Sequence record: MG673519.1
DNA: 64,000 nucleotides
Reading direction: 5' to 3' (one strand)
Source of the DNA: Escherichia phage LAMP
Below, piece by piece: positions 2,508-56,925 of this stretch (positions are counted from its first letter, which is position 1; each line of letters starts with the position of its first letter). The position numbers and the translations under genes are program-made. Below the pieces are notes generated by a model that was not told the origin of the DNA, ran no database searches, and worked only from the letters and a program-made list of their open reading frames with translations.

Positions 2508-3569
2508 ATGGCTAATCCAACTTTATTTGTATCGTATGACCAGAATGGTAAAAAACTTTCTTTTGCTAACTGGATTTCTGTTCTGTCCCCTCAGGATACC
2601 CCGTTCGTATCTATGACCGGTAAAGAGTCTATCAACCAGACTATCTTTAGCTGGCAGACCGATGCATTGGCAAGCGTTGACGCTAATAACGCACACGTTG
2701 AAGGTTCTCGTGCGGTTGATGGTGAAATGCAACCTACCGTAATTAAATCCAACGTTACTCAGATTCTGCGTAAGGTTGTTAAAGTTTCTGATACCGCTAA
2801 CACCACCGCTAACTACGGTCGTGGTCGTGAACTGATGTATCAGCTGGAGAAGAAAGGTAAAGAGATCAAGCGTGACCTCGAGAAAATCCTTCTGTCCGGT
2901 CAAGCTCGTACCGATGTTCTGGCTGACCAATACCTGACTAACTCCGCAACTGATCCTGCAGCTGTTGGTCTGAACGACACCCACGCAGCTCGTAAGACTG
3001 GTGCTTTCCAGTTCCTGTGTGCACACAACGGTGTTTCTGCTGGTGTTGTTAAGAAAGAAAATGGCCCTGCTGATCCGGATACTGGTGCAGTAACTGTTAA
3101 AGTTGCACAGAATGCTTCTAACCCGACCACTAACGTTGGTTTTGATGAAGCTGATATCTTTGATATGACTCTGCAACTGTACACTGCTGGTTCTGAAGCA
3201 GATATCATCATGATCAACCCTGCTCATGCTAAGATCTTCGCTGGTCTGCAAGAAAACACTCAGGGTTCACGTAAGCGTATCTTTGAGAACACCAAGCAGT
3301 TCATCTACGAAGTTAACAGCATCACTGACCCGCTGGGCCAGAACTACAAAATCATCGTTAACCGTTGGATGCCTACCGATGCAGTTTACTTCTTCCGTAG
3401 CGCTGACTGGACTCAGATGGTCCTGCGTGCTCCGAAACGTACTGAACTGGCAAAAGATGGTTCTTATGAGAAGTGGATGATTGAAATGGAAGTTGGTCTG
3501 CGTCACCGCAACCCTTATGCTTCCGGAGTTCTGTTCACTGCTGCGGGAAAGTTGGATCCGCAACAGTAG
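2508..3569 (+). CDS. major capsid protein
   Basis: 353-aa ORF with strong RBS (aggag) after scaffold gene, followed by a strong terminator; position and composition typical of an HK97-fold capsid. Confidence 0.8.
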   Translation: MANPTLFVSYDQNGKKLSFANWISVLSPQDTPFVSMTGKESINQTIFSWQTDALASVDANNAHVEGSRAVDGEMQPTVIKSNVTQILRKVVKVSDTANTTANYGRGRELMYQLEKKGKEIKRDLEKILLSGQARTDVLADQYLTNSATDPAAVGLNDTHAARKTGAFQFLCAHNGVSAGVVKKENGPADPDTGAVTVKVAQNASNPTTNVGFDEADIFDMTLQLYTAGSEADIIMINPAHAKIFAGLQENTQGSRKRIFENTKQFIYEVNSITDPLGQNYKIIVNRWMPTDAVYFFRSADWTQMVLRAPKRTELAKDGSYEKWMIEMEVGLRHRNPYASGVLFTAAGKLDPQQ

Positions 3570-4087
3570 ACAGTGTGACTGTTAGCCCTGCGTCTGTAGA
3601 AAGTCTAGAGACAGGGGCTACTCAGCAGTTTACTGCAAGCGCTGAGAAGAGTGACGGTTCTACCGAAACAACTGGCTTTACTTGGTCAGTAACAGGAGGC
3701 GGTTCTATCACTCAGTCTGGTTTGTATACTGCTCCGAGTGCGGCTCAATCCACTGATGTATCCATTACTGCGACTTTAGAGGGTGTTTCTGGTACAGCAA
3801 CCATTTCTGAAATTGTTGATCCTACCCCTACTATTGTAGCTAAGGGTCCAATTACAGGTAAAACTGGTGGTTCTTCCACTAACTTCACTACCATGTTTAC
3901 TGTAACTAATTCTACTGCTGCGGATTACACGTTTGTTGTAACCCCTGCAGAAGCTGGTACAGTAAGCGCTGCTGGTGCGTTAACCTTAGATGATGCTGCA
4001 AGTGGCGAAGTTACTGTTCAAGCAAGTTTGACAGCTGACCCGTCCATCAATGCAACATGCACTTTTACTGGTGTAACACCTGCTTAA
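2508..4087 (+). CDS. C-terminally extended capsid protein made by programmed -1 frameshift, carrying an Ig-like (BIG2-type) domain
   Basis: -1 frame is open from 3485 to 4087 with no RBS or ATG; slippery heptamer G_GGA_AAG at 3545-3551 in the capsid frame; extension begins TVSPASVESLETGATQQFTASAEKSDGS. Confidence 0.6.
3545..3551 (+). other. candidate -1 ribosomal frameshift slippery site (G GGA AAG)
   Basis: X_XXY_YYZ heptamer 19 nt upstream of the capsid stop codon, with the -1 frame open on both sides. Confidence 0.55.
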
Positions 4088-4094
4088 AACTAGA

Positions 4095-31940: not shown

Positions 31941-32422
31941 TTAGTGTGTATGCATCCAGTTTAACCCAATCTGACAATCAGAAGCCAGAGGACATTCCAT
32001 GTTCAAGTACTCACCAGCCTTCTTAACACAAAGCTCGGTGTACTCTTTGAGTTTCTGTACATCATTACGGTTCACTGAGAACTGGCCCTCATCGTGCATA
32101 TCAATTACCTTAGCACAACGAACTCCATCTTTCTCAATCCACTTGTTAAGGAACATCATAGCATATTTCATAACAACAGCACCAGCACATTGTAGGAGTG
32201 TGTTAAGGGCTTTATGAACCATAACCTTACCAGTGGCATCCCGTCTCATTGTAATCTTACGACCATCAACGCCAATCAAATACCCTTGAGCAGCTTTCTC
32301 TGTCATACGATCAATGAGGATTGCAATACAAGGATTCTCTGCCAAGAAGCGTGCTCGCATCACTGAACCTTCGTCAGCTCCACCACCTACGATTGAACCA
32401 AGCTTAGCATCACCTGCCCCAT
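31941..32422 (-). CDS. DNA polymerase (family A, T7 gp5-like), exon 2
   Basis: Frame open upstream of the annotated Met and encodes GAGDAKLG (motif B continuation); contains motif C VIDMHDE. Confidence 0.8.
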
Positions 32423-32726
32423 CAATAGTTCAAGCAAAGGCGCTACTCTTTGCTCCGTTCTCTTATGAACTGCTTACAGTTTCCTGTAAGATCGGACTAT
32501 ATCTTCATCTCCACCTTTACGTGCTGAGAGACAGGCGCTTCCGTAACACTTGTTACGTACTCCCTTCCGGGATAGTCTCTGAACTTTCCGTGACACAAAC
32601 TTTTCTACATAGATCATTGATGTTTATGTCACGGCTTAGCTGCTGATTGGCATATCTTTCGACTTAGCTTTCCAGCAATTCACCTGTTTTGCTTCTGCAC
32701 ATTTCTATGCAGTGAACCAATTATTT
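32423..32726 (-). mobile_element. group I intron (about 304 nt, no ORF) interrupting the DNA polymerase gene
   Basis: Exon 1 stops one codon after TFIYAFN; joining 32727 to 32422 restores NYGAGDAKLG; 5' exon ends in U, intron ends in G, GGUU near intron 5' end can pair with exon AACU. Confidence 0.7.
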
Positions 32727-34089
32727 AGTTAAAGGCATATATAAACGTCTTCGCATTATCACGAGTAGGAAGACCAGCAAGTTTCTGGTTGTGGGAGTGG
32801 ATATCACCTTCAAGAAGGATATCACGATACATAATAGCAGAAGCTAAACCACGTTCTGCCAGAGCTTTCTTAGCTGGATTATTCTCTTCGATTGCTTCAG
32901 CAAGCATATCCCTACACTCTTTAATGAGGTAGTGAGCGAGCATACGAAGTTCAAGTCCAGAACCATCATACCCTAAGAATACTTCTTTACCAGCGGGTAT
33001 GTAATATTTGTAAGCACCTACAGGCTTATCTTTCTTCCCCGGCTTACCTTTCTCGTAAATTACGTTAGTACCTTTTCGTATATAACAACCATCAGGAACA
33101 ACGTTAGTAATAACGAAAGGACGAGAGTGATCACTGTCTGAATTATAGTCAGACTCAAACAAACTGCGACACTCATGACCAAACAAACCACGGGAGGGAA
33201 TATTAACCACGATACGATGTTTGAATCGAAAAGTTGGCGTAGCGCAGCTGTTAGCTTCTGCCGAAAGTTTACCATCTTCGCGTTCCTTTGCTATGAGTCC
33301 ACTGATAAGACCTAGCCTGTGAGCCGCTACAACGCGCCTCTTAAGCAAACTTCCAACACTCCCTAGCTCGCCCCCTAACCCTTCTTCAAGAGTCTCCTCG
33401 AGGTTTGTAGGAGCTGTAGGCCACTTGTTTGAGGTAGCTAGTGCTATCTTAATCTCATCAAACGTGATAGGTCTACGTCGGTTAGGGTTTAAACCTAAAC
33501 CAAACACATAAGCCTTCATATAGTTCTTAGTCTTAAACCTAAAATGCTTCTCTAAGAACCTCCTAATATCTGCGTCAACCATCTCGGCTGTCTGCTTCTG
33601 TTTAGCATTACCTCGCATCCAAGCTGAATACCACGCTTGGTATGTTCCATACTTTCGTATATCTTTCTTGATTTCAAAAGTATTCCAAGGTTTCTTTGAT
33701 ACGTTAAACTCTGGAGGAAGAAAACCCTCATCCATAAGGGCTTCTTTAACTCGTGCATCTTTCGATGGGTCAAAGTCCACGTATTCAACACAGGTGAATG
33801 CTCCACCAATGTCTTCTCTCTTAAGGCCAACTCTATCACAATAGGCTTGAGGCCACTTCTGTAAAGCTCCAGACTTCTTAAATGGCTTCATATAAGTAGA
33901 GCCATCTAGTCTCATCTTAGGTAAGAGAGGGATCAGTTCTTTGTCGATATTAACAATAATCTCTTTAAGGAGGTGAACATACCACCGAGCATTTCTTCGG
34001 TTGAAACTCACTCCGTGCTTCGCTTGCTTAGAGATTATATCAGCGACAGTCATCTCTGTCAAAAATGGGAGAGCGTCCGGGTTGCTCAC
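32727..34089 (-). CDS. DNA polymerase (family A, T7 gp5-like), exon 1 (polymerase domain)
   Basis: Motif A GYDGSGLELRMLAH and motif B RDNAKTFIYAFN; colinear with T7 DNA polymerase from the end of its exonuclease domain. Confidence 0.85.
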
Positions 34090-56849: not shown

Positions 56850-56925
56850 TGGTGCGCCCTACAGGATTTGAACCTGTAACCAATAGCTTAGAAGGCTACT
56901 GCTCTATCCATTGAGCTAAGAGCGC
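56850..56925 (-). tRNA. tRNA-Arg(UCU): tRNA-Arg, anticodon UCU, CCA encoded
   Basis: Hand-folded cloverleaf: 7-bp acceptor stem, D-arm GCTC/GAGC, anticodon loop CTTCTAA, 5-nt variable loop, T-arm ACAGG-TTCAAAT-CCTGT, discriminator A, CCA. Confidence 0.9.

Follow-up and report, generated by a model that had tools for sequence, protein, structure and literature searches.

An endonuclease-free group I intron interrupting the DNA polymerase gene of Escherichia phage LAMP

Escherichia phage LAMP carries a family-A DNA polymerase gene on the minus strand (34089..31941) that is broken by a 304-nt insert (32726..32423). These coordinates, like all others below, refer to the 64,000-nt stretch of sequence record MG673519.1 that was analysed, which we call the window. 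A preliminary description, made from the sequence alone, had interpreted the insert as a group I intron without an open reading frame (ORF), lying inside polymerase motif B. It left the strand unstated, and its coordinates proved exact, with every feature on the minus strand. From the evidence below, we conclude that this interpretation was right and that the insert is a group I intron interrupting the polymerase gene. Our overall reading, to which we give a probability of about 90%, is that the intron homed in from a donor resembling phages KBNP1711 and Bas89, that its endonuclease cassette was lost, and that it would still splice.

A group I intron in polymerase motif B

Exon 1 (32727..34089), which appears in the ORF list and is colinear with the Bas92 coding sequence (CDS), starts with GTG and comprises 454 full codons and base one of codon Tyr455. 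Exon 2 (31941..32422) runs from the last two bases of that codon to the stop codon and aligns with T7 DNA polymerase to the C-terminus. At its end, exon 1 reads ...RDNAKTFIYAFN and is followed immediately by TAA (32727-32725), a UAA made of the last exon U and the first two intron bases; it stands directly behind the Asn codon, not one codon further on as had been described. The frame of exon 2 is open from 32429, in agreement with the preliminary description, reads ..GAGDAKLGSIVGGG.. and stops at 31941. It opens just 7 nt upstream of the junction, where there is neither a start codon nor a ribosome-binding site. Joining 34089..32727 to 32422..31941 in silico yields the continuous polymerase that had been anticipated, an 1845-nt ORF of 614 amino acids plus stop (a 615-codon frame) that reads ...TFIYAFNYGAGDAKLG; the T|AT junction rebuilds the Tyr455 codon, and the motif RDNAKTFIYAFNYGAG is regained upon removal of the intron. 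The spliced CDS has the same length of 1845 nt in Bas92, Bas89 and KBNP1711 and in 8 of 8 phages without this intron, and the gene is uninterrupted at this length in Bas92 and five other phages. Comparison with intron-less homologues, one of the checks that had been suggested, reveals the exact junction: against the Bas92 polymerase gene, which is 98.9% identical, the insert is a precise 304-nt indel.

The spliced protein matches the Pfam family DNA_pol_A (PF00476) with 82.1 bits against a cut-off of 34.3, and T7 DNA polymerase with an E-value of 3e-33. Its segment LPTRDNAKTFIYAFNYGAGD aligns without a gap to T7 L515-D533, with R518, K522, Y526 and Y530 all kept, and motif B likewise aligns to T7 residues 516-531 with no gap. 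In this alignment, the split codon is the equivalent of T7 Y530 in the O-helix, which bears out the proposed location in motif B. We take E. coli Pol I Y766, with which the O-helix of that motif ends, to be the counterpart of this residue. The polymerase region is ~99% identical to that of Escherichia phages Bas92, Bas93 and Bas94, ~95% identical to that of many Kuravirus phages, and ~84% (BLAST) or 81% (direct CDS count) identical to that of KBNP1711 (Nieuwekanaalvirus) and Bas89. Bas92-94 are also the nearest phage-collection matches to the window (94-99% identity, partial coverage); the BASEL paper places them in a 67-69 kb Kuravirus clade and does not mention introns. The window polymerase differs from those of Bas92-94 by one amino acid or none (21 nt and one amino acid in the case of Bas92), and we conclude that it is under purifying selection. 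The window gene shares its GTG start codon (34087-34089) with the genes of all Kuravirus relatives (VSNPDA...), and those of KBNP1711 and Bas89 begin with ATG (MENPDV...).

A covariance-model search, which had been named as the decisive check, returned the Rfam group I intron family RF00028 at 32736..32473 (100.8 bits, gathering score 50, E 6e-25). The match covers the full model (1-253) and is the sole intron match in the window. In the Rfam alignment, the consensus splice-site U.G pair is U32727.G32718, which falls on exactly the bases from which P1 had been proposed, GGUU (intron nt 9-12) and the exon end AACU. P1 (32713..32732) is formed by exon UUUAACU and the guide GGUUCA (32718..32713). 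As described, the last base of the 5′ exon is U (32727) and that of the intron is G (32423, the omega-G). Both are invariant in five diverged copies, and 5 of 5 introns end in ..UUG; an alternative junction shifted by 1 nt would give the same spliced product and leave an intron ending in A.

Folded in isolation, the intron reaches -95.3 kcal/mol (minimum free energy z-score -5.7), and this fold recovers P2, P3, P4/P5, a 13-bp P6a, P7.1, P7.2, P8, P9 and two 3′ hairpins. All helices are intact, and the P3-P8 core with its P3/P7 pseudoknot is made of standard pairs only. The P2 (32695..32712) and P8 (32508..32529) hairpins are found by Rfam as well as by the fold. P3 (32531..32687), in which 32687..32681 pairs with 32537..32531, surrounds P4-P6a, the 5′ strand of P7, P7.1 and P7.2. 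The P4/P5 domain occupies 32641..32677 in the Rfam alignment, and P6a (32588..32634) consists of the 13-bp stem and a 21-nt loop (32621..32601). P7 (32495..32577), the guanosine-binding site of group I introns, is a pseudoknot of 32577..32573 with 32499..32495 and shows the consensus GACUA...UAGUC in the Rfam alignment. In the 3′ region (32434..32490), P9 (32490..32473) is accompanied by two peripheral hairpins past the end of the Rfam model, P9.1 (32470..32457) and P9.2 (32453..32434). Between P7 and P3′, at 32572..32542, we found UCCCGGAAGGGA-GUA-CGUAACAAGUGUUACG, corresponding to P7.1 (32572..32561), the linker and P7.2 (32557..32542). P7.1 and P7.2 in this position, joined by a G-U-A linker, are the criterion for subgroup IA2 (PMC3428280), and because of this arrangement we assign the intron to IA2.

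To this structure we compared diverged intron copies (94%, ~90% and 75% identical), found in ENA and Logan assemblies through their endonuclease proteins. Their ORFs were excised in silico, and five distinct sequences were aligned (alignment A2) and scored on a P1-P9.2 structure drawn by hand, in which P7 is a pseudoknot. Standard pairs fill 98.7% of the 395 cells, as against 30-44% with partners slid by 1-3 columns, a comparison among five sequences in which drawing the structure from the window sequence favours the unshifted register. Double substitutions are independent of that choice, and two-sided changes occur in 17 of the 80 pairs. Slid controls have 0-2 such pairs and shuffles 7.8 on average, and 0 of 500 shuffles attain 17. 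These compensatory changes are located in P1, P2 (two pairs), P3 (one pair, C-G to U-A in 2 copies), P6a, P7.2 (four), P8 (two), P9 (three) and P9.2 (three). All 5 copies keep the splice-site U.G pair unchanged, and in 3 of them the neighbouring A-U becomes C-G. In one copy, L026, the P6a stem has a wholly different sequence and is still complementary. The pairs of the P4/P5 domain and of P7 (5/5 intact) are invariant across the copies, which makes them uninformative on structure but consistent with it. Taken together, these changes support the ribozyme structure and suggest that its helices are under compensatory evolution.

Two further features of the intron sequence were noted. In the isolated-intron fold, the guide GGUUCA (32718..32713) pairs with UGAACU at 32432..32427, 4 nt ahead of the terminal G. 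These 6 bp mimic P1 with a stronger pairing than the real exon provides, and diverged copies keep a GAAY core. By BLAST, intron nt 220-303 (32423-32506; J8/7-P7-P9-P9.2) are ~80% identical to intron sequences in Staphylococcus phage K-like viruses (lysK endolysin gene region) and Bacillus SPbeta-like phages, which points to an IA2 lineage widely shared among phages of unrelated hosts.

The same intron with an endonuclease gene, and its transfer

A BLAST search with the 304 nt recovered the intron at 99.7% identity, in two pieces, solely from KBNP1711 and Bas89 (KarlSchell_Bas89). In these phages, intron nt 1-110 and 107-304 bracket an insert of 477 nt (KBNP1711) or 476 nt (Bas89) in the P6a terminal loop. 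When nt 3034-3509 of the Bas89 locus are excised in silico, 320 of 320 bases are identical to the window intron and 16 flanking exon bases. All three introns interrupt the Tyr codon that follows ...AFN, at T|AT, and have their immediate exon flanks and 303-304 of 304 ribozyme nucleotides in common. They differ in length and content: the introns of KBNP1711 and Bas89 measure 780-781 nt, with a gene for an HNH-type endonuclease (PHROG 1035) placed in the loop of P6a, whereas the window copy is without 476 nt of this cassette. The polymerase genes of those two phages are ~19% divergent from that of the window. The cassette brings AAGGAGG, an ATG and an ORF that enters the ribozyme core and ends at a TAA within P7.2. 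In Bas89 the ORF is intact at 174 codons, and its product falls in PHROG 1035 (E 1e-43), a family that carries the label 'endonuclease VII' and is akin to HNH-type endonucleases; no Pfam family matched it.

Public records treat the locus in different ways. The GenBank record of Bas89 already gives the polymerase as a two-piece joined CDS, and 2625 - 780 = 1845 fits our splice sites, whereas the KBNP1711 record has three separate proteins there. Relative to Bas89 (locus L005), KBNP1711 (locus L003, ~3135-3142) has one extra A in an A-run that frameshifts the endonuclease ORF, and for this reason its RefSeq endonuclease is shorter, with a downstream start; the extra A is either incipient decay of the endonuclease or a sequencing error. 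None of the relatives' introns matched Rfam at the gathering threshold, and a permissive scan gave them 28-48 bits, because their ORF inserts break the model.

The exons that flank the intron bear on how it arrived. Over 1845 positions, the window exons differ from those of Bas92 at 21, Bas93 at 15 and Bas94 at 15, but from those of Bas89 at 348 and KBNP1711 at 354. The two exon types are separated by 328 sites, and at ten of these the window has the Bas89/KBNP1711 allele. Seven of the ten lie near the intron, at -29, -26, -23, -14, -8, +4 and +7, and each of the seven is a third codon position with a synonymous change. The 41 bp around the junction are enriched in differences from Bas92-94 (Fisher p ~1e-10); the other allele stands at -26, -14, +4 and +7 in 8 of 8 phages without this intron, and at -29 in 7 of 8. 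The donor-type tract measures at least 37 bp and at most -56..+21. Co-conversion of flanks is an expected by-product of endonuclease-initiated homing (PMC3984707). As another cause of the allele cluster, RNA pairing constraints were considered and rejected, because P1 uses exon positions -1..-6 only and there are no differences there. We conclude that the 37-bp donor-type tract is a co-conversion footprint of homing and that the intron was laterally acquired, in a block (32416..32755) that comprises the intron and exon flanks -29..-1 (32755..32727) and +1..+7 (32422..32416).

Origin of the endonuclease-free form

An intact homing endonuclease ORF is absent from the window intron. What is present is a remnant of its reading frame at 32553..32616, the last ~21 codons (DLCRKVCVTESSETIPEGST) and the TAA, which shares sequence with the 3′ portion of the P6a loop, the P6a 3′ strand, P7 and P7.1. 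This C-terminal remnant was the sole tblastn match in the window (32630..32556), and tblastn with trans-acting endonucleases of four families over the 64 kb found none encoded. The deletion junction (32617/32616) lies in the P6a loop. To place the remnant, we aligned ten endonuclease homologues. The three most distant ones examined (30-38% identity) are free-standing genes with no group I signal nearby, P0007 in a tRNA cluster and P0009 and P0010 between unrelated genes. They keep F153-I154-x-L-C157-x-x-V160, and their tails beyond it diverge fully; across the endonuclease family, C157 and V160 are invariant and F153/I154 conserved. The codons for D155-V160 (DLCRKV; GAT CTA TGT AGA AAA GTT) lie 3′ of the deletion junction. 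The window still has them, for the most part in the unpaired loop of P6a, in which they are not needed for RNA structure. Because distant free-standing homologues have C157 and V160 without exception, we regard the retained loop as endonuclease-derived coding sequence. The window intron, having kept this piece, is therefore best described as a deletion derivative of an endonuclease-bearing intron and not as an ancestor that precedes invasion. Consistent with this, the ORF is present in 8 of 8 other independent intron copies recovered, down to 75% identity.

The statement of the preliminary description that the intron has no ORF holds for a homing endonuclease but not in the strict sense, as stops occur in all frames save one 47-codon ORF at 32617..32474. 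This ORF crosses the ribozyme core, takes its ATG from the deletion junction (CAA|TGATC) and would encode a very basic peptide. It has no Shine-Dalgarno sequence, no PHROG match and no exact match in the protein collection, and is probably meaningless.

From the anatomy of the intron and established group I chemistry, we propose the following course of events. The polymerase pre-mRNA would fold into the P1-P9.2 ribozyme, free guanosine would attack after U32727, held in the P1 U.G pair, and the freed exon 1 would attack after the terminal G (32423), so that ligation of the exons rebuilds the Tyr455 codon (U|AU) and gives the 614-aa polymerase. Unspliced RNA would run into the UAA stop at once and produce a truncated protein without half of the O-helix and the C-terminal palm. 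The intron is very probably functional, because cultured Bas89 and KBNP1711 rely on an identical core and the window polymerase shows 0-1 amino-acid differences from its sisters. Earlier, endonuclease-driven homing would have carried the element from a KBNP1711/Bas89-like donor into a Bas92-94-like genome together with ~37 bp of donor exon. Either afterwards or during the transfer, the 476-nt P6a-loop cassette would have been lost, and with it the Shine-Dalgarno sequence, the ATG and the first ~153 endonuclease codons. The intron left behind would be spliceable and not self-mobile, movable only with an endonuclease provided in trans by a co-infecting phage, and its presence would still disrupt the site that the endonuclease targets.

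Several observations weigh against this account. Splicing is inferred from sequence, and manual inspection for a P10 with the 3′ exon found no convincing pairing, at most 1-2 bp. The donor-type tract is not clean: the window has the recipient allele at -20, an allele of its own at -32, and donor-type alleles once more at +88, +91 and +229, past 11 recipient-type sites. These irregularities therefore call for a true donor slightly unlike Bas89/KBNP1711 or for patchy heteroduplex repair. The deletion may have come before, during or after the transfer; the simplest order puts it after the full element had moved, because an intron that lacks the ORF is unable to home by itself. The deletion junction, CATCAA|TGATC, shows no clean microhomology. 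A microhomology-mediated deletion was considered and rejected, as the flanks share just an imperfect TCA(A/T) and no arrangement of repeats yields the junction. Finally, the ORF-less form was not found elsewhere: the junction 31-mer had no match in IMG/VR, the core 33-mer matched one KBNP1711-length contig in IMG/VR and nothing in JGI metagenomes, and exact protein look-ups of the 454-aa exon-1 product returned no record.

Alternatively, the ORF-less intron could be the ancestral form, with an endonuclease cassette later invading its P6a loop in the KBNP1711/Bas89 lineage to make a 'composite element'. That endonucleases invade introns without an ORF is an accepted route (PMC3984707). The cassette is a complete unit in a terminal loop, equipped with a Shine-Dalgarno sequence and an ATG, and the 22-codon read-through into the core could be chance. 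We nevertheless consider an ancestral origin improbable. The sequence retained on the 3′ side encodes the two residues that are invariant in distant free-standing homologues, and every other copy, to 75% identity, has the ORF. The ribozyme parts are 100% identical in both forms, which therefore leaves no time for an older ORF-less lineage. Moreover, an ORF-less intron could not have homed alone into a Bas92-like genome, yet the co-conversion tract indicates transfer.

That the loss of the cassette is an artefact, arising from mis-assembly or from a deletion selected in laboratory propagation, strikes us as highly improbable. Finding the ORF-less junction in none of the public collections searched speaks for it, but the window exons are of the Bas92-94 type and ~19% different from those of Bas89/KBNP1711, which excludes a known genome that simply collapsed in assembly, and the junction is clean and leaves a well-formed hairpin behind. 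A dead intron or plain insertion, with the polymerase made as two polypeptides from a split gene or reduced to a pseudogene, is hardly credible: several records do annotate the halves separately (KBNP1711 and gene calls on metagenomic contigs), but the break falls within one O-helix codon, the junction offers exon 2 neither a start codon nor a ribosome-binding site, the helices of the ribozyme are all intact and show signs of compensatory evolution, the polymerase appears to be under purifying selection with 0-1 amino-acid differences from Bas92-94, and cultured Bas89 and KBNP1711 have the same core in their only polymerase gene.

Other polymerase introns and known systems

Within this phage group, group I-type inserts occur at four sites of the polymerase gene (window CDS numbering), three of which lie within 18 nt. 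The 304-nt window intron and its family occupy site 1363|1364. At 1351|1352, Bas93 (L011) and Bas94 (L002, 2913-3618) carry a 706-nt intron (Rfam 43.3 bits) with an ORF in Pfam Endonuclease_7. Its insertion point, at T|AT in the Tyr codon that corresponds to T7 Y526, lies upstream of the window site by exactly 12 nt, so that the closest sister phages hold a different intron in the same O-helix. At ~1692, ~330 nt downstream of the window site, PE006 (L004, ~3249-3856) and contig L013 (~3506-4088) have an insert with a weak group I signal (Rfam 26-29 bits) and an ORF in HNH_3, and the 75.9-kb contig of L013 has both this insert and a window-type intron.

The fourth site, 1346|1347, is occupied in loci L018-L020 and L026 by inserts with an HNH-like ORF of 161 or 166 codons. 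These loci (L018 1673-3153, on a contig of Logan SRR25400274; L019; L020; L026 ~985-2465) hold two tandem inserts with a 17-nt mini-exon, TATCTACGCATTTAACT, between them. The upstream insert is 685 nt with a 161-codon HNH-like ORF, and the downstream one belongs to the window intron family and has the endonuclease. Removing both from L018 gives a 613-aa polymerase with motif B intact. Taken alone, the upstream insert has weak Rfam support (17.8 bits); its P1 covaries, with GACGUU/GGCGUC in L018 and AUCGUU/GGCGAU in L026, and the U.G pair is present.

A broader picture can be offered only tentatively, and we hold it to be less probable than its opposite. The O-helix stretch of Gordonclarkvirinae polymerase genes might be a contested landing pad for unrelated intron and endonuclease elements, on which the ORF-less intron would be kept as cost-free immunity to cleavage and marker exclusion by co-infecting Bas89-like phages, and the window would then offer a zero-divergence snapshot of endonuclease loss in the Goddard-Burt cycle, in which invasion is followed by decay. 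That interruption of the presumed target site protects against the endonuclease of co-infecting relatives is a speculation that may hold.

A parallel is known from another coliphage. The T4 nrdB intron, with its truncated I-TevIII gene, is reportedly a deletion derivative of the full version in RB3 (Eddy and Gold in 1991). Like the window intron, it is said to have lost its endonuclease by internal deletion while an intact version persists in a relative, and it still splices, as we predict for the window. It reportedly keeps a large part of the ORF, whereas the window intron has ~21 codons and is otherwise identical to its full version. This identity of the two versions suggests that the deletion in the window is very recent.

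The class of intron is well known, as IA2 introns occur in phage polymerase genes, and the ORF-bearing version was already public and implicitly annotated in Bas89. The introns of the T7-like phages PhiI and W31 and of the cyanophage Pf-WMP3 share with that of the window the IA2 type, P7.1/P7.2 with GUA and a host gene for a podovirus family-A polymerase (PMC3428280, which cites work of Bonocora and Shub in 2004). Pf-WMP3 also has a UAA stop at the exon 1/intron boundary (PMC3428280), as in the window. All three have an HNH ORF in P6a that runs into P7-P7.2 (PMC3428280), an arrangement in common with the full version of the window intron, though the window copy itself has no ORF. The insertion site differs as well. 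In E. coli numbering, the listed phage family-A polymerase introns interrupt 674 (SPO1, SP82, Bastille, Pf-WMP3), 676 (phiL7) and 881 (PhiI, W31) (PMC3428280), in contrast to the Y766/T7 Y530 codon of motif B in the window. Other ORF-less phage introns are mobilised in trans by 'collaborative homing' (PMC3984707), and an endonuclease could likewise mobilise the window intron at co-infection; here, however, the helper is not encoded in the 64-kb window and would come from a co-infecting Bas89-like phage. A search of the literature for introns in KBNP1711, Kuravirus or the BASEL Gordonclarkvirinae found no describing paper, with most subscription journals outside its reach.

What is new here is the ORF-less derivative with its homing footprint, a motif-B site that adds T7 Y530/E. 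coli Y766 to the published polymerase sites 674, 676 and 881, and the local crowding of introns. For annotation, the window polymerase should be entered under a single joined CDS instead of two fragments or a pseudogene, and the calls in KBNP1711 and several metagenomic records are wrong. The three forms together make a clean natural triplet: intron-less (Bas92), intron with endonuclease gene (Bas89, KBNP1711), and the same intron without the gene and with the footprint kept. This triplet would suit measurements of homing, trans-mobilisation, marker exclusion and endonuclease cost in tractable E. coli phages (BASEL collection). The general understanding of group I introns is unchanged by these findings.

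Elsewhere in the window, Rfam (73.6 bits) and ARAGORN both identify a tRNA-Arg gene with anticodon UCU on the minus strand at 56850-56925.

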